From: Octopus vulgaris
Taxonomy: Eukaryota
NCBI GenBank assembly: GCA_951406725.2
Contig: OX597821.1
Coordinates: 77,748,001 to 77,812,000 of the forward strand
Reading direction: 5' to 3'
DNA: 64,000 nucleotides
Below the pieces are notes generated by a model that had not been told where the DNA came from, did not search any database, and worked only from the letters and a program-made list of their open reading frames with translations. Both the position numbers and the translations under genes were made by a program. Shown one piece after another: positions 2,946 through 61,344 of this stretch (positions within the stretch are counted from its first letter, which is position 1; each line of letters starts with the position of its first letter).

Positions 2946-3113
2946 GAGGAAATTATTTATATGACCTGTCCTGAATTGCTGGCCTCTACTCTCTTCATGG
3001 AAGCTATGGACGACAATGAAGCCATAACCATTAAAGGCTTTGAGAAGTTCTCTGAGTTTTCTGGTTATGGAGAGAATTTGAAGTTCTCTGGAAACTACTG
3101 TGATAAGGCTTCT
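2946..3113 (+). CDS. Split-PARG/AKAP-like gene, first exon visible in window (PARG catalytic-domain segment beginning at the EE of the QEE motif); upstream exons lie outside the window
   Basis: Polypyrimidine tract + tccAG acceptor, GTGAGT donor at 3114, phase 0/0. Translates EEIIYMTCPELLASTLFMEAMDDNEAITIKGFEKFSEFSGYGENLKFSGNYCDKAS, matching the PARG pattern QEEIRF..PEL..S.LF.E.L..NE...I.G.E.YS.Y.GY. Confidence 0.9.
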
Positions 3114-4489: not shown

Positions 4490-4844
4490 CGGAAATCTGA
4501 TGGCAATCTGGAGACAATGCTAAGTGCCATCAATACACTTCCGTACAAGTTTAACAATCAACAAAGGCAATACATGGACCGATACCTGTTGCGAGATCTC
4601 AATAAATGTCTGGTTGGCTTTCAGCCAGCAATAAGCTCACTAAATCACACATCTGCAGATGAGGATTCCCTTCTCAATCAGGTTTGTGTCAACTCTGAGA
4701 CACAAACTGTTACTACTGGAATTGTAGAAGACCCCATTCTTGTAACTAATGTTGAACCCAGCAGTCTGACGCCTCCCCATAAAAGCAATGTTGCATCTAA
4801 CACAGATGAGATTCTCATTGCCAATGAAGCAACAGATGTTGAAG
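4490..4844 (+). CDS. Split-PARG/AKAP-like gene, exon 2 in window (PARG AID/RELNKAY-equivalent region, then start of low-complexity insert)
   Basis: ttcctccAG acceptor, G|GTTGGT donor (phase 1). RKSDGNLETMLSAINTLPYKFNNQQRQYMDRYLLRDLNKCLVGF matches PARG ...IVAIDAL.F....QF.....RELNKAY.GF. Confidence 0.88.
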
Positions 4845-5147: not shown

Positions 5148-5701
5148 TTAAAATATAGTTTACTTAGTAATTGATCTGGATGAGTAATTATTGTCAAATA
5201 CCTGTATGTTGTTATTTGTTCCTTCTCAAGCCATGCTTGGCTCATAAGTGCTGGTTTCCCGGTTTCATTGGCATATACGTTCCCCACCTAGGCAGGATGC
5301 CGGTCTGTTGCAGGTGAGCTTCAAGATGCAGGAGGAAAGAGTGAGAGAAAGTTGTGGCGAAAGAGTCAGCAGAAGATCACTCTTACCTTCTGCTGGAGCC
5401 ACGTGGATCTTAGGTGTTTTGCTCATAAACACACACATCACCCAGTCTGAGATTCGAACCCAGAGTCCTTTGACCGTGAGTCAACTGCTCTAACCACTAT
5501 GCCGTGTGTCTCCACTAAATACCTGTGTGGGAACATTATATTCAACATGTTTTTGATATGTCATTTGTGTGTCGTTTTATATGTCTTTCTCTTTCTCAGC
5601 TCTGAACATAGACACACATACACCACATATTTACATCTTATTTCGAAATGTTTTCCATTCATATTGATTTCTGTTAATTTAAAAAATGTTTATATTTGTA
5701 G

Positions 5702-8016
5702 GGGAAAGAAAGGAAGTGAAATTTGTCGAAGATATTGATAGTTTTGCCAAGCGTTTAACAAAAGAAATTCTCACCGAATCTCTATGTGAATTGAACCCTC
5801 AGTGTACTTGTAATAACTCTGATGATGTGGCTCCTCGTTTTGATAAAGAATTCAAGTCTATAGCAAAGTTTATACCAGAACATTGTTCCCTGTATGGCAG
5901 CGGGCTGTTGGCGTCTACCTTTGGTCATACAGCATCGATGGATTACTTGGATGTTGATTACCATGACTGGATCTCAAACTTTCGACGTCGAAGTTCAAAC
6001 CTGAGCGATTTGACATCCCGTCGAAGTAGCTGCAGTACACGTTACAGCTCCTACAGCGACATCAGTTCAGACTTTGAGGAATTGTACGAATCTTTCATGA
6101 AACGAGAACTCACGACTCGTCCTGGTACGATTCATGAAGAAATCGGCACATACAATGTTCAGGATTTTGCTGCCAACTTTATAGAAAACCTACTCCAAGA
6201 GAGTGCTGCTATTGTTTATAATACAACCGGTATGCAGAACTTCCAAAATATTCACCTTCCATCTAATCTGCACAAACCTGTGCCAATTAAACTCGGCCCT
6301 GAACCAAACATCGATCGTAATGCCAATGTCTCTTTTATATCAGAGGACACTGTCCAAGGTTATGTGGATCATTTATTTGAAGACATCAAGGTGACTGTTG
6401 TTGATTCAGAAGAAATTTGTTTACAGTGTGAAAATAAAGAACAACAAAGACAATGTTCATTTTTCAGCAATTTAAGCACACTGAATGATCTTTCTGATGC
6501 TAGCATCATGTCTGTTGAGCCAGCTTGCAACATTTTCCGGCCAGCCATACCACAGGCCATCTACAGTTATTCAGATTACCTCTCAAATGAAATTTTATGT
6601 GATTCTCTAAACGAAATAAGTACTCTAAATATTTCCTTTCTTGTCAGTTCGGTTTTAGCATCCAACTGTGAACAGAAAACCTCTCCATCGTCTACAGAGC
6701 TAGACTTAACTGCAGTTGCAGATAAATTAGTCAACCAAATCTTTCGGGAAGCCAAAGCTATAGTTAACTGCACTAACCCTTCCTCAGCTTCTTCCAGTCG
6801 ACGACAATCACTATGGAGCAACTCTTCTTCATTGTCTGGTTGGATGAATAATAGCTTATCGTTTGGATGTTGGATTAATGATTTAAGTTCAAACATTCTC
6901 GATAGCAGCCTGAAAACAGCTCACAAAATTAGTATGTTTATTGATAGTATTGAATGCCATGGTGTAAAAGCTGCCTATACCTCAAGTAGTTGCCAAGGAG
7001 TTTATCTCCCTGATTACGACAAATATGCCTTGACTATTACGAAGGAACTATTTACAAATGCTTTGTTAGAACTGCACGAAAACTACCTTATTAACCCCTA
7101 TTACCGACAGCTGCTACGGTACCAATATGGGCCCAGCTTGCAGAATATGACTAGTGTTGAAGACATGGACTGTTGTGGAGTTGGTTTTGACCACAAACTT
7201 GTTCCTCAGGAAGATCTTGCCAATTTCTATATGGAACTTGAGAGGCAAAGTTCTTTGAGTGAGCAGAATAAAACAATTGAACCAAGCATGAGTGGATTCC
7301 GCGATATTACACTTTCACAGTTTGCCGAGGAACTGATGCGCGCTGATGCAACGAGCCAGTCTTTGTTGAGCTTGCGCAATAATTGGCACCAGGAAAGTTT
7401 CCACAGCGGTAGTCTGAGTGGATTTAAAGACAACACTTTGGCAAGTTTTGAGGACGAGTTGCTTAGGAGTCGTGTTGATTCTCCAGATTCCTTACTATAT
7501 TTTGATATTAGGGACAATTTCCAACATCAAGAATCAGTGATCTCTCGAACTGATATTTCCGATGACCCGACATCTAAAGATTTCAGTGAAATCCATTCTA
7601 TGTCTTTGGACAGTGACGATAATCTATCAACATTTGCTGATCAGGTGTCAGAGGAAATAATGTACGAGTCTTTTGTAGATATTTTTGGAGTCATTCCATG
7701 TAACGTTCAGTTTAAATCTAATATATGCTTGCTATGTCTTGAAATGATTGCCGATGAAATTGCCAAAAATGTGATCCATGTTGCCATTCTGACGTTGCAA
7801 AACCCTTCTTGCGACTACAGCGAAGATTTAACTCTGAACTTTTCACAATTTACTCATCCATGCTTGCATAGAAAATTTCCTGTAATGTCTGTCATCGATT
7901 CCGAACCACAAAACATTCCACCACCTCTAACTCTAAATGACTTTTATGAAAATACTTCCAAAGAAATCATAGAATCTGCTATTTTAACCGTTTCTTCATG
8001 CAGAGACATTTACAAA
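5702..8016 (+). CDS. Split-PARG/AKAP-like gene, 2.3-kb exon 3 in window (acidic, Ser-rich, repeated AKAP-like amphipathic helices)
   Basis: 783-aa ORF. tttgtAG acceptor in phase 1 fits the previous exon; AAA|GTAAGT donor at 8017 (phase 0). Motifs include FAKRLTKEILTESL, VADKLVNQIFREA, FADQVSEEIMYESF, IADEIAKNVIHVAI. Confidence 0.9.
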
Positions 8017-8189
8017 GTAAGTCGAAATATTTTTTAAAAATTATTTTTCTCTTTTTTCTGTAATCCTTTCTTTTTCCACTGGTAAAGCAAAAACATAAAC
8101 TCCTCATTTCACTACTAGTGAACTGAATTAACTTCACTTTTGTATTTGTTCTGCAAGGTTCTTGATGTGAATTCATGAGTTGAAATAAA

Positions 8190-11916: not shown

Positions 11917-12060
11917 AGTAATTGTCGAGCGTTAGTCAGTTCATGTGGAATCCCTGGATCAAATCCCCAGCTTGAAGTTTTGCTCCAATGGATTGTTGCT
12001 TCATACATCCAAACTCCAGTTTTTATATGTTACACAAAGCAAAGTGAAAAACTTGTCAGG
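11917..12060 (+). CDS. Split-PARG/AKAP-like gene, exon 4 in window (C-terminal domain, first part)
   Basis: ttgcAG acceptor, AGG|GTGAGT donor, phase 0/0. SNCRALVSSCGIPGSNPQLEVLLQWIVASYIQTPVFICYTKQSEKLVR; P.L..LLQW..AS motif. Confidence 0.88.
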
Positions 12061-13908: not shown

Positions 13909-14304
13909 TTTCCCGATGTGGTCAGCATTGTCCAAGCAAAGTGCTGGACTGTTGGTGATCTGATGTGTACTGTACATAAGTTCTGTAACCAGGCTCTTGA
14001 GCAGTTGGACTCTGAAGGAATAATTACATTAGATTTATTCGAAGAAGTCCTCATATCTGCCCATCGTTGTCGTCCTGTTCTTGAAATGTCTCCAGATGAC
14101 GCCACTGTTATTGCTGAAGTGCCTACAAGCGATTCCACTGTTGTCGACCTGCCACTTGAATATGTCACCTCTAGCAACAACAACAACAACAATGATGATG
14201 ATAATGGCAATGTTGTTCCGGCTGTATCCGAAAATGACCAAATCCTTCCTACCACTCTCCTCCCTTCTGAGAGTGATACAGTAATTGATGACGATCCTGA
14301 CTGA
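13909..14304 (+). CDS. Split-PARG/AKAP-like gene, terminal coding exon
   Basis: tttcAG acceptor, phase 0. FPDVVSIVQAKCWTVGDLMCTVHKFC...LDLFEEVL then acidic tail, TGA at 14302-14304; an AT-rich 3'UTR-like tract follows. Confidence 0.88.
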   Translation, partial: FPDVVSIVQAKCWTVGDLMCTVHKFCNQALEQLDSEGIITLDLFEEVLISAHRCRPVLEMSPDDATVIAEVPTSDSTVVDLPLEYVTSSNNNNNNDDDNGNVVPAVSENDQILPTTLLPSESDTVIDDDPD

Positions 14305-17738: not shown

Positions 17739-19697
17739 ATGGCCATCCACTCGTGACTGAGGAAGACCATTGCTGACCTTAGGGACATTGTGCGCTCTAG
17801 GACTAACTTATATTTTGCATTTGCGGCTCCATTGGTGGCTAATGAGCCCTGCTCTTGACAAGCATACATGACTGCAAACATTGCAGACCAAGCTTTCCCC
17901 ATTCACTATACAAGCCGTGCGCTTTTGCGGAGCTTGCTTAAGTTCTTCATGCTGGATACGTGCTTTCTCAAAAGTGGCGGTTCCCTCCTTAACCTACTTC
18001 CTCTATCTGTGGTGATGACAGGCATTGTTCTCCCAGTCAGTGTCCTGTATATCACAGGCCTTTAATGAGGACTTCCTTAAATCGCAGCTTTGGTTTCTGC
18101 CAAAGTCTCCTTCCATTCACAAGTTCATAGAGCATCTGCTTAGGAATCCTTCTATCCTTCATTCTAATAAGGTGTCCGGTCCAACGTAACTGGTGCTTGT
18201 GCACTATCGCCTCAATACTCAAGATATCAGCTGTCCTCAGGATCTGTGTGTCTGGAATTTTTGAGGTCCAGCCAACATTGAGAATGTGTCTGAGACATTT
18301 CTGATGAAAGCGTTCAAGGATCCTTACCGGATATTTGTACAGAGTCCATGTCTCACATGAGTAGAGGAGTGATGTCAGTACACAGCAACTTTTGTTCTCC
18401 TTGCGATGCCATGTTGGGACCAGACATGAGACTGAAGAGACCGGAAGGAATTAGTTGCTTTCTGCAAGCTTGTCTACTACCTTCAGAATTGTTCCTTCAA
18501 CCAAGATAGCTGGTTCTATATATGGATTTCCTGGTGCAGGCTGGAACATTACAACAGTCTTGTCCAGGCTAATGCTGAGTCCAAATGCCCTGCAAGAAGC
18601 AGAAATGCAATTCATGAGTATTTGCATGTCATCCACTGCATGAGTGACTAAGTCACAGTCATCTGCATAAAGGAGGTCATGAATAATAGACTGGGAAACC
18701 TTTGAATTGGCAGCAAATTGGTGAAGATTAAAGAGGTGGCCAGAGGATCGATATCTGACATATATTCCCAGAGAGCTAACCTTAGCAAAAGCATGAGTAA
18801 AAGCAGCAGCAAAGTACAAAGAAAAGAGAGTTGGGGCAAGGATGTCACGCTGCTTGACACCATTCTCTACAGGAATGGGCCCACCATGGCACCACCAACA
18901 TTGACCCAAGCCTCCATCCCATCATGAAATGATTTAATTATAGCTACAAAGTGATCCAGACATCCAAGTTTGCCAAGTATTTTCCACAGAAAGGCCCTAT
19001 TTACAGTATCAAAGGCCTTTGTTAAATCAATGAATACCTGGACAAGATCCATATTCTGCTCATAGCACTTCTCCTGCATCTGTCTTGCTGTGAAAATCAT
19101 ATCCATTGTCCCTCTACCAGATTGGAAGCCACATTGAGATTCAGACAGGACATCATTTACGAGACACCCATTCAGACAGGTAAGAATATTTGCCAGCAGC
19201 TGATAGTAGAGCAATACCGCTGTAGTTACCACACATTGTTCTGGCTCCTTTTCCTTTATATAGAGAAGAATAATTGCATCCTTCCAGTCCTTAGGGATTG
19301 CACCATCCCTCCAGACTGCACTAATAAGTTCATGAAGGGACTGTGTGATGCAATTACCACCAAATCGCAAGACCTCAGCACAAATTCCATCCTTTCCAGG
19401 TGCCCTACCAAGATTCAATTTACTTATTGATGTCATCACTTCATCTATTGAGAGCGAGGAGTCTAAGGAGCCAATGATAGGTCTTTGTTGCATAGTATCA
19501 ATCACTGTTTCATCCACAACTGACTCATGGTTTAGGAGTTCAGAGAAGTGTTCGATCCAGCGACCTGTGATTTCTGTTGATTTAGTAAACAGAGTGGAAG
19601 ACTCCTTGGGAAGCAAAGGAGCTGATGTGGAGCTCTTAGGTCCATAAGCTCGCTTCATAAGATGGTAAAGCTTCTTGCTGTCATTTGCATATGACAC
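17735..19697 (-). mobile_element. 5'-truncated RTE-clade LINE with frameshifted reverse transcriptase
   Basis: RT motifs: GRAPGKDGI, ESQCGF..GRGTMDMIF..RQMQEKC.EQN, FIDLTKAFDTV, GVKQ.DILAPTLF, LLYADD; 3' end abuts (TA)n. Confidence 0.93.
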
Positions 19698-21951
19698 ATT
19701 CTACCAGTATCCGAAGTTTGACAGTGTTTAGTTATAAAAAATTAATTTCTCGATCTGCCGTTCAAAGGAAAAAGATCCCTTTCTATGTTCATTTAGCTAA
19801 ACTGTAGAAATTGTAGTTTTGATATTGTTAAAATCCCCGTATTTTGCCATGTTAATTGAAAAAAAAAAAAAAAAAAATTCGAAAAAGTTTGAAATTTAAA
19901 AGTGGAGTTGGGGTGGGTGGGTTACATTTTGAAAAAAAATTACTTTTTCACTTATCGTAAACTCCAACATCTAAAATGTACGAATTTAAAGAAATTTCTT
20001 CAAAAAGAAATGCATTTTTGAAGGTGAGGTGCCGCACCGCATTCGTCGCCGAATATTATTAATGCTTCATCTGTCGATCTCAGACGAATGAAATAGCTGC
20101 TAAATCTCCCTCAAATCACATCCAACATCCCCCCCACAAAAAAAAGGGAAGAAGGGCAAACTTGGGATAATGTCGTCCTTCTTTCAGAGATGTAAGGGAT
20201 GGTCAGGGCTGGAACGTCTTTGATCCTAAATTTGCTCAAGCAGGGTTAAGCAGCAGCAGCAGATTAGCGTATGGCCTAACAAGGGAAACTACGCGGTCAT
20301 TCAACATGCTAGAAATAGCAACCACAAGCTCACTCAATTCATATCCCACGGTCCTAAAAAGGGATATTTTTCATAATATTGTTTTAAATATACAAAAGGA
20401 CGAGGTGGTCATGGCTAGAATTCCTTTCGTTATACGTCTATTTGGTCAGGACTGAGTAAAATCTAAGCAGCAACAACAACTACTGAAATCGGTGTCACTG
20501 ACATGCTAGTTATAGCAGTCAAATGTCCTTCACAGTAACTTTTACCCTTCAGAAAAAAAAGAGACGAATATATTGTGAAAGTCAATTCTGCTATATACTG
20601 GGACCTCACGTATTTAATATAGTGAGTTGACAAAAACCAAGATTAAATGAACATATCCATACAATTGTAGACAGAATCCTTCGAAGGCGGGGGTTAAATT
20701 TTTGAAAAAGTGGGGGAAAAAAACCCATGTAAGGAAGATAACTCCAATAAACTTAATGAAGTTTCAAAAAATAACGAAAAAGGCTGACTTTGGTGGAACT
20801 GAAGAGAATTAAATAGAACCATGCAGATCTAGAAGGAAGCATTAACGAGGTTGATTGACATGCTAGAAATAGCAGTTCAATTTCCCCCTACCGTCTTAAA
20901 AAGGGGCTCATTAGGTTATGTAGTGCGAGATATACTATTCTAGGAAAACACGAAGAAAAGAACGAAGATGTGTTGGTCGGCATGGCAAGGAGTTGGTGTA
21001 TTTGAGGGTCATAAACAGACATTCGATCAGTTACTTTGGTGCTATGGATGTTCTTGAGCAGAACTCACTCAACAAAAATAACATCGATTAAACTCGTTGG
21101 TGGACAAAAGGCTTCAGGCTCTTTACATTCAGAGTTCAAACCTTGTCGAGATCGATAAAATAAGTACGAATCTTGTTAAAATTATTCCAGCCATTTTAAA
21201 GTATTTCAAATTTTCACCAGCTTTTAGTTTTTTCAAACTTTCTACACTGATGCAATTTCTTTATTATTAAGTTTTAGAAAAAATAAGTACCTTATTTTCG
21301 TCATTAACATTCAAAAACTACATTTGTTTGAAAATAATTTGGTAAGATTTGAAATACTTCAAATCGTTGGAAAAAATTTAGCAAGATCCCTAAGTACTAG
21401 TTGAGCACTGGGTTCGATGCAGGCGACTAACCCTTCCCACCACAGAATTACAGGCCTAACGCTTATATTTAACTCGCAGCTAAGCCCAGTTTCACCCGGT
21501 CTGTTTGGATGATGTGGCTGTGATCGTTTTCGGTTAGGCATAATCTTTAACAGCGTTTCTCAACCTTATCATTTCGGGTCCCCTGTTTCGATTGGAGCCT
21601 CCAGCTGTATGAAAATTTCCTGACCCCACTCCATCAGAAAACAGCTCCTAAGCACCTGGTTGTTTTAATGGCAGAAGAAAGAGGGAAATTCAATTAGAAA
21701 AAGTTTTAATCGATTTTCTCGGTAAGTATGTGGGTTAGGAAAAAATACAAATTGTATTCCAATCTATGCACTTGTCTCCACATGTGTGCCATTTTTCACG
21801 TGAATCCACTCTGCCGTTTGGCTGTGAACCTCAAGACAAGAAAGTATACAACGATCGCCCCTGTCCAATTTATATTATGGATTAGGAGTTTTATTACAAG
21901 GGGGACTGTTCTTTAGTAAACACCGGGTACCAAATGACCTCCCCAACAACC

Positions 21952-46001: not shown

Positions 46002-46021
46002 CACTCACACACACACACATC

Positions 46022-46053
<32 letters not shown>

Positions 46054-47379
46054 TATATAGACATATGTATGTATATGAGTGTAAGACTGTCTGGTGCACA
46101 TGTGCAATTTTCATGCACAGGCCCCACCACTCCATTTATACGGATATGCATGTTTTTATATGTGCGGGTGTAGGTGTGTGATGGGAGCGTATATATATAC
46201 ATGTGTGTGTGTGAGAGTGTAATTGTATGTCTATAAATATAGTGCCGGTGGTACATAAAAAGCACCATCCGAACGTGACCGATGCCAACCCCGCCTCGAA
46301 TGGCTTCTGTGCCGGTGGCACATAAAAAGCAACATCCGAACGTGGGCGATGCCAGCACCGCTCCGACTGGCTTCTGTGCCGGTGGCACATAAAAAGCACC
46401 AACCGATCGTGGGATCCCGGAACATCTCGCTGTGCTTGAGGAGACCTGTTGAGTCAAGTGCATGTACATGAACATCGAACCAAATATCAATGGAAACAGT
46501 AGTAGTTGTGATACCTGTGCCGGTGACACATAAAAAGCACCATCTGAACGTGGCCGTCGCCAGTGCAGCCTCCACTGGCTTCTGTGCCGGTGGCACATAA
46601 AAAGCACCATCCGAACGTGACCGATGCCAACCCCGCCTCAAATGGGTTCTGTGCCGGTGGCACATAAAAAGCAACATCCAAACGTGGCCGATGCCAGACC
46701 CCTCTGGCACCTGTGCAGGTGGCACGTAAAAAGCACCCACTACACTCGCGGAGTGGTTGGCGTTAGGAAGGGCATCCAGCTGTAGAAACACTGCCAGATC
46801 AGACTGGAGCCTGGGGCAGCCCCTGGCTCCCCAGATCCCGGTCGAACCGTCCAACCCGTGCTAGCGCGGAAAACGGACGTTAAACGATGATGATGATATA
46901 TATATATATATATATACGTATATTTATACCTATAAATGTCTAAATATATATGTATTATGTTACATGTAGGCAAGGAAGCGCCTATGTGTATATAAGGATG
47001 AGGCTGCATACATATATATATACATGCATGGGTGCGTGTGTGGATATGTGTAAGTACTTACATATATGTTAGTGTGTTTAGTGTATGTGTGCATGTATGT
47101 ATACATGTTTGTGTGAGTGTGTATGTATGTAGCCGTTGTGAGTGCAGGAGGTTTATGTCTATATATTGTGAGAATGTGGTTGTGTGTATATTTTTAATAA
47201 TATTTTTTATCTTATTTCTTTTTCCACCTATCAGAGTTACTTCCCTTTTACTTGACTGTTTATTTTTTCCGTAGTGTCTGTTGCTATTAATAGACGACAA
47301 GAATGTATCGTAGCTCTCCGTTCTGGCATTCGAAACAACAAATACTATCATGACAACCTCTTACTGTTTATTCTAATTT

Positions 47380-57049: not shown

Positions 57050-58130
57050 CTTAACAGTGTGCAACCGAGACACGTGAATCTGTCAACAATATGTATTTTT
57101 TTCTTTTGTCTCTTTACAAAATCTGACAATCATGCTATAGGTTTCCAGGCGAATGACCTTCGTCTTTATGTTTATTATGAGGTCAAAGTTGTCGCAGGTT
57201 GTTCACAACAGGTCCACCACCCTCTCTTTATCCGCTTTGAGAGAATGGTTTTCGACGAAGAGAAAACCCCCCGAGAACAGTCTCACTGAAGACAGTGGGC
57301 GTCTGAAAACTTGCATAACTTGCCATCAATATGGTACCTGAAGCAGATGAACGGGGTGTCACACGGCACCCCGATGGCATTCTATCTTGATGGGCACCTT
57401 TTATTTTACTGGGAAGGTGTCACATATTTGTTCGGCATCAAATACGCAGACCATCATGCTTATGGAAATGTCAGCCTATTCTAATAAATCCGCTGGGGAA
57501 GCGAAACTTCTCTGTGATCTTCCAAGAGACGTCCTCGCTGAATTTGCCAAGAGTCTTTTGTCAAGTCGACAAATGTCATGTAGAGATCGTAGAGTTGTTG
57601 TCAGAATTTTTGTTGGCGTTGATATACTACGAAGAATCTTGTCTATAGCCCCACGATCGGCACGGAAGACACATTGACTTTGTGGAAAGAGATCTTGTTG
57701 TACGTGTTCCAGTTGACACTTGAGCAGGAAACGGGCCAGGATTTTACTCTGCGATGAACAGGAGAGTTGTCGCATAGCTGGTGTTTCCCTTTTCTTGCGC
57801 AATGTCGGAATGTTTGAAGTTCTGGAGACTTTTCTCTTTGCTCCATTGGGGAAGATGTCAGTCAGGTGTGCATGGGCGAACGTCACAACTATTTTGTATA
57901 CACCAGCAGGAATGACGTCAGCATTAGGGATTTTGGCGCTGGATATCAACGAGATAATCTTCATGGCTTCAGGGAGTGTAGGTGGGAAGCCAGGCTTGTG
58001 GTTTACTTCTCCCGTGAAAAGCGACTTACATTATACTCATTGATTAAAGATGGTCGGTTGAGTACATTATCAAGGTTTCTATCTCTCTAGTAACAGCTGC
58101 TTGTCTTTGAGCAATGTTTGGTTTTCATAA
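57050..58130 (-). mobile_element. Old RTE-clade LINE RT fragment
   Basis: KILARFLL..LEHV.QDLFPQSQCVFRADRGAIDKI remnant; related C-terminal remnant at ~55340-55635. Confidence 0.7.
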
Positions 58131-59979: not shown

Positions 59980-60567
59980 ATCATTATTATCATTATTATT
60001 ATTTATTATTATTATTATTATTATTGAGTGAGAGAGCAGTTCATGCCATCAAAGTGACACTGGGGTAAAATATACGAAGCCCAATATACCCATCATGACT
60101 ACCCGTCTGATAAAGGTACACCAGGCACATGCATCACAACCATATTTGCGCGACATGGTGATCTCATATCAAGATAAACAGCACATGACCTTGCAGGTGG
60201 GGCCCAGTTAGAATTTTCTTCAGGTTGAGTAGCCCATCTCACTCAAACGGTCCCTGAATAAGGGTTGTTTAAGGATGTTGAAAGAACCACCCATGTTTCC
60301 AGAGGTGAATTATTCAAACCCCAAAGAATCCCTCTCAACACATGGCTATGATGCTCCCCCACCACTTCTGCTCGTGATCAGAGATGCACATATCGTCAGC
60401 CACTAAGGGACATGCTCAACTGGTTAAGGTCAAACAACTGACAGGCAAATCTGTGGTATTGAGCAGAATATTTGCTGTAGCCCATCTTTTATACCAAGAC
60501 AAAACAATGTACATGATAACACTTCCAATCAGTTAAGATCAGAAGCCATGAGAGCCACTGCCTGGTA
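59340..60567 (+). mobile_element. Two tandem copies of a ~530-bp repeat embedded in (ATT)/(ATC) microsatellite
   Basis: Units at ~59340-59875 and ~60030-60567, both GAGAGAGCAG..CATGC.ATCAAAGTGACAC...GAGAGCCACTGCCTGGTA. Confidence 0.9.
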
Positions 60568-60928
<361 letters not shown>

Positions 60929-61344
60929 AAGGTGATGAACCGGCAGAAACGTTAGCACGCCGAGCGAAATGCTTAGCAGCATTTCGTCTGTCGCTACGTT
61001 CTGAGTTCAAATTCCGCCGAGGTCGACTTTGCTTTTCATCCTTTCGGGGTCGATTAAATAAGTACCAGTTACACACTGGGGTCGATCTAATCGACTTAAT
61101 CCGTTTGTCTGTCCTTGTTTGTCCTCTCTGTGTTTAGCCCCTTGTGGATAGTAAAGAAATAGAAATAGGTATTTCGCCTGTCTTTACGTTCTGAGTTCAA
61201 ATTCCGCTGGGGTCAACTTTGCTTGTCATTATTTCGGGGGCGATGAATTAAGTACCGATGTAATAGACTAGTCCCCTCCCCACCAGATTTGAGGCCTTGT
61301 ACCTCCAGTAGAAATTACCATTATTATCATTATTATTATTACTC

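Follow-up and report, generated by a model that had tools for sequence, protein, structure and literature searches.

AKAP3, AKAP4, AKAP11 and SPHKAP each terminate in a C-terminal PARG half, the remainder of the domain being supposed lost (Schou et al., PMC11377751). The motifs DFLTASE and DFVTA-E are found near AKAP N-termini, with AKAP220 having two FFAT-like motifs (Mikitova and Levine, PMC3261905). SPHKAP has an FFAT-like motif at F212/T214, and its two RI sites drive stable clusters (Vierra et al., PMC10460453). The AKAP helix possesses hydrophobic residues at positions 5, 6, 9, 10, 13, 14 and 17, the RI determinant being F/Y followed by A at helix positions 1–2, and SKIP (SPHKAP), AKAP220 and the RI-selective AKAPs have been dated to the vertebrate base (Falcone et al., PMC12083921). 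AKAP11 has been reported as a risk gene for bipolar disorder and schizophrenia (bioRxiv 2024.12.30.630813). A split PARG with AKAP helices was not found described in the literature covered (subscription journals lay outside it); the nearest account is that of Schou et al., in which the AKAP passages and the text of Supplementary Fig. 6a name no invertebrate split form (PMC11377751).

The window analyzed here is a 64,000-nucleotide stretch of the Octopus vulgaris genome (contig OX597821.1, positions 77,748,001 to 77,812,000). It was found to possess a giant exon lying in one 784-codon open frame and flanked by AG at 5700–5701 and GT at 8017–8018. Five coding exons of the gene lie within the window and five upstream of it (Table 1). 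The exons were found to be consecutive in single contigs from 4/4 sequencing runs (presumed to be RNA), although in run X12 the exon at 11917 was unlisted among the matches, with a 143-letter gap of matching size at that place. The exon joins in these contigs are intron-free, in agreement with spliced mRNA. The contigs also show two third-position, synonymous differences, A>G at position 11988 in 4/4 runs and T>C at position 4753 in 2/4 runs, each of which may be an allele or RNA editing. A full-length homologue from Octopus bimaculoides (P0002, 1397 aa) is 97% identical to the exon. A chance ORF or a misassembly was ruled out by the spliced contigs and the homologues, and the presence of two adjacent genes by the single contigs and by full-length proteins in several phyla. 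The database names of these proteins are “uncharacterized,” “PARG” or “serine-rich adhesin-like.”

Table 1. Coordinates of the features identified (positions are those of the window unless a contig is given).
Feature	Position	Strand	Description
GGH signature exon with four more 5′ exons	G000:C8:77741300-77747830		Upstream of the window
PARG N-half exon	2946..3113	+	Begins at EE of the QEE catalytic motif
Exon closing the PARG N-half	4490..4844	+	Closes the N-half (RDLNK helix) and opens the insert
Giant exon	5702-8016	+	2,315 nt, 771 whole codons; encodes the helix array of the insert
H1	5734..5784	+	FA-type AKAP-like helix; lies within the stretch matched by SmAKAP (Pfam) in the decapodiform homologue
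RRRSS..SRRSS block	5983..6030	+	Near-invariant; candidate PKA phosphorylation sites
Acidic-aromatic motif	6073..6096	+	Counterpart, by alignment, of the second amphioxus FFAT-like motif; octopus form degenerate, with Leu at position 2
H2	6157..6207	+	FA-type; best conserved; F/Y-A in 12/12 non-cephalopods
H3	6559..6609	+	YS start; weak conservation outside cephalopods
H4	6706..6756	+	VA start; position not conserved outside cephalopods; weakest candidate
H5	7015..7065	+	YA-type helix
GF[RK]D..L..F..EL motif 1	7291..7341	+	Conserved
GF[RK]D..L..F..EL motif 2	7417..7464	+	Conserved
H6	7624..7674	+	FA-type helix
H7	7738..7788	+	IA in octopus; F/Y-A in 9/12 non-cephalopods
H8	7933..7983	+	FY in octopods; FA in decapodiform; F/Y-A in 10/12 non-cephalopods
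Exon opening the PARG C-half	11917..12060	+	GNWGCGAF diphosphate-binding loop 3 residues shorter and altered; QW helix kept
Last coding exon	13909..14304	+	End of the PARG C-half (WTVG), low-complexity tail, stop

In a Pfam search, P0002 gave PARG_cat_N together with a PARG_cat_C match that is broken into two stretches flanking the giant exon. This exon encodes most of an insert of ~850 residues within the PARG macrodomain. The insert takes the place of the loop that joins the RDLNK helix to the GNWGCGAF strand-loop. The insert is 761–1960 aa long in the measured non-insect members and about 500 aa in damselflies, compared with 12–19 aa for the corresponding loop of short-loop PARGs (eight of which were measurable by pattern). 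Another contig (C5) of the same genome carries a canonical PARG whose motifs are intact and whose loop is short, so that the gene of the giant exon represents a second PARG paralog. The split form is predicted, from its damselfly member, to share the fold of canonical PARG (human 4B1G/7KG1, Drosophila 8ADJ), and has both PARG_cat_N and PARG_cat_C. Apart from the insert, the split form differs from canonical PARG in beginning almost directly with the catalytic domain and in the broken active-site motifs of its cephalopod and damselfly copies. PDB searches with P0002 and with a 23-row family profile returned PARGs only. An AlphaFold2 model of a damselfly member (the one complete split PARG found under 1200 aa) aligned to human PARG with a Z of 31.6 and an rmsd of 2.6 over 425 residues (model residues 1–984, VIA-align), and from this model the two PARG halves are predicted to refold into one domain with the insert left as a loop.

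The split PARG is present in cephalopods, bivalves, gastropods, a chiton, the brachiopod Lingula and nemerteans, and also in damselflies, the hemichordate Saccoglossus, Holothuria, Asterias and Branchiostoma (amphioxus), with a degenerate split PARG protein in Owenia. In a tree of the N-half built from 26 chosen rows, 20 insert-bearing rows were split from 6 short-loop rows with a support of 98/97; the outgroup is small (6 rows), and the damselflies sit on a long branch. An earlier tree, lacking 7 of 32 rows through failure of the pattern, gave the same division at 96/95. The damselfly proteins (P0093–P0095) are short split PARGs with one AKAP-like helix, which corresponds to H2, and active-site lesions of their own (QEC). 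Among the other PARGs, an amoebozoan short-loop protein (P0106) was found to be fused to a RabGAP-TBC domain.

The original prediction was of about eight candidate R-subunit-binding helices in the giant exon, and all eight peptides were located in frame at the positions given for them, the last, placed at about 7930, having its exact start at 7933. A profile of 17 positions was trained solely on non-cephalopod sequence, namely 71 gap-free helices taken from 12 homologues; the exon peaks exceeding the 95th percentile of shuffled-exon maxima were exactly these eight helices, and 0 peaks were obtained with the same profile in 7/7 short-loop PARGs. Since six of the eight positions are represented by orthologues in the training set, cross-trained runs are a fairer test. 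When trained on homologues of H6–H8 alone, the profile recovered H1–H4 (p ≤ 0.037 against shuffle maxima) and missed H5 (p = 0.10); when trained on homologues of H1, H2 and H5 alone, it recovered H6 and H8, missed H3 (0.08) and H4 (0.18) and gave no peak for H7. AlphaFold2 (exon with a 31-row alignment) modeled all eight as helical, with pLDDT of about 60–82 in 10-residue blocks, while 391/771 residues of the exon fell below pLDDT 50 and the model (pTM 0.22) has no confident folded bundle. A PDB search with the eight-helix profile returned only designed armadillo repeats, which were judged spurious, and no AKAP. The helix repeat is real and the predicted pattern recurs, but its fit is loose, with YS at the start of H3, FY at that of H8 and Lys at a core position of H4. 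The hydrophobic moments, at the 41st–97th percentile of exon windows, are unremarkable for some helices, and the polar faces range from neutral to acidic, with net charges of +1 to −4. Profile counts gave 4–11 candidate helices per species, with one in damselflies.

It had also been expected that the helices would be more conserved than the linkers. This was borne out against non-core linkers, both by identity to the decapodiform homologue (77% against 57%) and by mean BLOSUM in 12 non-cephalopods (1.10 against −0.31), paralogous helices possibly having been paired by the aligners. It did not hold for the RRSS-rich block and the two GF[RK]D motifs, which exceed the helices in conservation; for this reason the advantage over random windows is modest (p 0.02–0.05 in 4/9 tests), and it was not significant against Argonauta, nor by identity in non-cephalopods. 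Across 15 species, the hydrophobic fraction is 0.75–0.94 at helix core positions against 0.10–0.27 elsewhere, and the helices have the length (14–18 residues) and hydrophobic pairs of amphipathic AKAP helices. In alignments of 15 and 31 rows, the tandem RRxS sites show little or no variation; four occur in the exon against 0.40 expected in shuffles, a number reached by 0/2000 shuffles. The pair of GF[RK]D..L..F..EL motifs surpasses the AKAP-like helices in conservation across lophotrochozoans and is often preceded by RRxS in relatives. A FEEL stretch was considered as an LIR and rejected, since most relatives show F..Y or L..Y.

On the basis of these helices, it is quite likely that some of them bind R subunits. 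Among the 71 homologous helices, the RI-selecting positions are occupied by F/Y in 63/71 and by A in 54/71, whereas in octopus a strict F/Y-A start is found in 4/8 helices (H1, H2, H5, and H6, but not H3, H4, H7, and H8). In Pfam scans, neither the whole octopus exon nor any of 12 segments of it matched an AKAP model at E ≤ 10. Sub-cut-off matches to SmAKAP/RII_binding models were obtained in the insert of 15/47 split relatives against 0/11 short-loop PARGs, the best SmAKAP match among relatives having an E of 1.6e-5 and no relative reaching the curated AKAP cut-off. With smAKAP, whose model (PF15127) gave sub-threshold matches in relatives, and with other RI-selective AKAP helices, the present helices share the F/Y-A start and the hydrophobic pairs at 5/6, 9/10, and 13/14; the likeness is confined to the helix, with no homology beyond. 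A preference of the helices for RI may be predicted as probable. The genome encodes both RI and RII D/D domains, four D/D matches having been found, of which two are RII-like and one is presumably SPA17-like. The second RII-like match (L004, G000:C22:7982961) lies in a 386-aa open frame and is possibly an intronless RII copy; an intron-containing RII is located on C5.

The C-terminal piece following the insert begins where the AKAP alignment of Schou et al. begins, and in that alignment QW is found in 10/10 AKAP rows and WxVG in 7/8 SPHKAP/AKAP11 rows, against 0/5 animal PARG rows for each (PMC11377751). In the split family, QW occurs in 38/38 aligned rows (the search query itself having carried QW) and the second Trp in 16/19 by pattern. 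As these tryptophans are also present in plant, ciliate or fungal PARGs, they are regarded as retained ancestral states and not as shared innovations. An acidic FFAT-like motif follows the PARG N-half in 25/38 split members against 1.5 expected; it resembles the published DFLTASE and DFVTA-E (PMC3261905), and two such motifs are found in the amphioxus split PARG, as in AKAP220. It was found in 0/3 cephalopods. In the order of their parts the split PARGs resemble SPHKAP (SKIP)/AKAP11 (AKAP220): an N-terminal region is followed by the FFAT-like motif(s), carried by most non-cephalopod members, then by a long low-complexity stretch bearing helices of the R-binding type, and last by the C-terminal PARG half (PMC11377751, PMC3261905, PMC10460453). 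F/Y-A helices are common to both. The loss of the GNWGCGAF loop in the vertebrate AKAPs is paralleled in the cephalopod copy. The split PARG differs from SPHKAP/AKAP11 in retaining a full PARG N-half, with intact catalytic motifs in 29/32 non-cephalopod, non-insect rows, and in its 4–11 candidate helices (one in damselflies), against two characterized sites. The octopus copy differs further in being without a good FFAT and in having helices which are predicted binders.

The C-terminal PARG-derived half-domain which characterizes the AKAP11/SPHKAP/AKAP3/AKAP4 clade is present in the split form, and is homologous to that of AKAP3/AKAP4. The AKAP_110 model (PF05716) gave weak matches on the C-half, at profile positions 608–668, in 7/47 split rows against 0/11 short-loop rows, a small contrast from about four lineages. 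The rest of the model was unmatched, and the split PARG is much longer and carries the N-terminal PARG half. The nearest atlas clusters to the octopus C-terminal piece are AKAP3/AKAP4 (0.81–0.83), which is taken as a lead only. A homologue search with the octopus C-piece yielded 3 cephalopod matches from 82 candidates and no vertebrate AKAP; one with the nemertean C-piece, of low sensitivity, yielded 49 matches from 73 with no vertebrate AKAP and no vertebrate split PARG; an atlas search with amphioxus residues 380–560 (the FFAT-to-H2 region) returned nothing usable. As vertebrate AKAP sequences were not returned, orthology is argued from shared part order and complementary distribution, not from a tree. 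On these grounds, we judge orthology to the vertebrate AKAP clade to be likely, with good confidence. A TPPP[ST]P motif was noted in 6/38 rows (P0074:756, P0076:801, P0078:760, P0080:788, P0081:771, and P0083:951), namely five named deuterostome proteins and P0080, and is absent from the other rows. The motif is presumably similar to the site at which GSK3 docks on AKAP220.

Among the 38 aligned rows, Asp737, GGG, QEE, and GNWGCGAF are all kept in 29/32 non-cephalopod, non-insect rows, and these relatives could for the most part be active PARGs judging from their motifs. In cephalopods (3/3), Gly stands in place of the Asp737-equivalent, GGH replaces GGG, and the shortened, changed loop no longer has GAFG, although both catalytic glutamates persist; the three damselfly rows have their catalytic motifs broken in a different manner. 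The GGH exon was read in the O. vulgaris genome itself, and the octopus protein lacks the combination of Asp737, GGG-X6-8-QEE and GAFG loop which marks an active PARG. In other PARGs, where the diphosphate is bound by the GAFG loop, mutation of either the equivalent Asp or the third Gly abolishes activity (PMC3519477, PMC4287526). The active-site lesions, together with the published effects of equivalent mutations, suggest that the cephalopod copy is probably a pseudoenzyme.

The reading which we consider fairly probable is that the gene encodes a PARG split by a long, largely disordered insert whose helices are likely to dock PKA R dimers, with RI likely preferred; the cephalopod PARG would likely be inactive, and the gene would likely be the invertebrate precursor form of AKAP11/SPHKAP/AKAP3/AKAP4. 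The original prediction was of a multivalent, possibly RI-preferring PKA scaffold. The conserved helices, the F/Y-A counts and the weak Pfam matches in relatives favor such a scaffold, while a strict F/Y-A start in only half of the octopus helices speaks for fewer sites, and binding by all eight is unlikely. The prediction had also been made without the context of the array, which lies inside a PARG domain that is likely kin to these AKAPs.

An improbable alternative is that the helices bind D/D domains, mainly those of RII or of non-PKA D/D proteins (SPA17, ropporin-like), with a structural role such as that of AKAP3/AKAP4 in the sperm fibrous sheath. The genomic D/D matches, with two RII-like and one that we take to be SPA17-like, would supply partners for this, the aromatic first residue is absent from H4 and H7, and AKAP3/AKAP4 are the nearest atlas clusters. 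It is also reported that some AKAP helices serve non-PKA D/D proteins as well (PMC12083921). However, the conserved helices are dominated by F/Y-A, the near-invariant RRxS sites suggest PKA itself, and the FFAT-like motifs fit the plan of SPHKAP/AKAP11. The AKAP-like split PARG may, alternatively, be real while a fragment of a canonical PARG gave rise independently to AKAP3/4/11/SPHKAP in vertebrates. Such convergence, which we regard as slightly more improbable still, would agree with the lack of a direct sequence match between insert and vertebrate AKAPs in the searches, with the repeated evolution of short motifs and with the BLAST-based dating of SKIP and AKAP220 to the vertebrate base (PMC12083921). 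It would, however, need one and the same order of FFAT(s), helix array and PARG C-half, with the C-half starting at an identical point, to have arisen twice; moreover, amphioxus has the split form, no vertebrate split PARG was among the 49 matches of the low-sensitivity search, and QW is kept by the AKAPs and absent from animal canonical PARGs.

It is very improbable that the helices are not AKAP sites and instead pack against each other, against membranes or against some unrelated partner with a helical groove. The octopus helices without a Pfam AKAP match, the mixed hydrophobic moments and a helix number varying from 1 to 11 between species would be in keeping with this. Against it, no confident bundle was obtained with AlphaFold2, the polar faces carry little or negative charge, the hydrophobic spacing and small-residue positions fit the AKAP consensus, and SmAKAP matches in relatives reach down to the E-value given above.

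According to the preferred reading of an anchoring array within a PARG, the two PARG halves would clasp both ends of a flexible loop displaying several D/D-binding helices. Several of these (H1, H2, H5, and H6 first) would each take one R-subunit D/D dimer. The scaffold would gather type I PKA into clusters, as does the two-site SPHKAP, and would itself be phosphorylated within the RRxS block. Most relatives would use the acidic FFAT-like motif to tether the scaffold to VAP on the ER, and would hydrolyse poly(ADP-ribose) via the intact active site. As the FFAT-like motif and the active site are both degenerate in cephalopods, the PARG fold there may serve as a structural clasp. A more tentative scenario, possible though somewhat doubtful, is that a second PARG, with a PKA-anchoring array grown inside its macrodomain, already existed in the ancestor of bilaterians. 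In most invertebrates this would have remained both a working poly(ADP-ribose) hydrolase and a type I PKA scaffold tethered to the ER, linking cAMP signalling with ADP-ribosylation; catalysis would have been lost independently in cephalopods, damselflies and vertebrates, and the vertebrate copy would have given rise to AKAP11, SPHKAP, AKAP3, and AKAP4.

If true, this would join the PARG-half ending of AKAP3/4/11/SPHKAP (PMC11377751) with the dating of SPHKAP, AKAP220 and RI-selective anchoring to the vertebrate base (PMC12083921). RI-type anchoring would move back to the bilaterian ancestor, AKAP3/4/11/SPHKAP would have one ancestor, and a dual PARG/PKA scaffold would be predicted. As AKAP11 is a risk gene, invertebrate orthologues would provide simple models and allow the role of its C-terminal domain to be tested directly.

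Elsewhere in the window, frames at 18451–19700 (−) and 57476–58030 (−) are, we assume, like broken LINE reverse-transcriptase fragments. The region 46005–46860 is a tandem repeat with an imperfect unit, and 60428–61137 is a long ATT-type microsatellite; both give rise to spurious ORFs.
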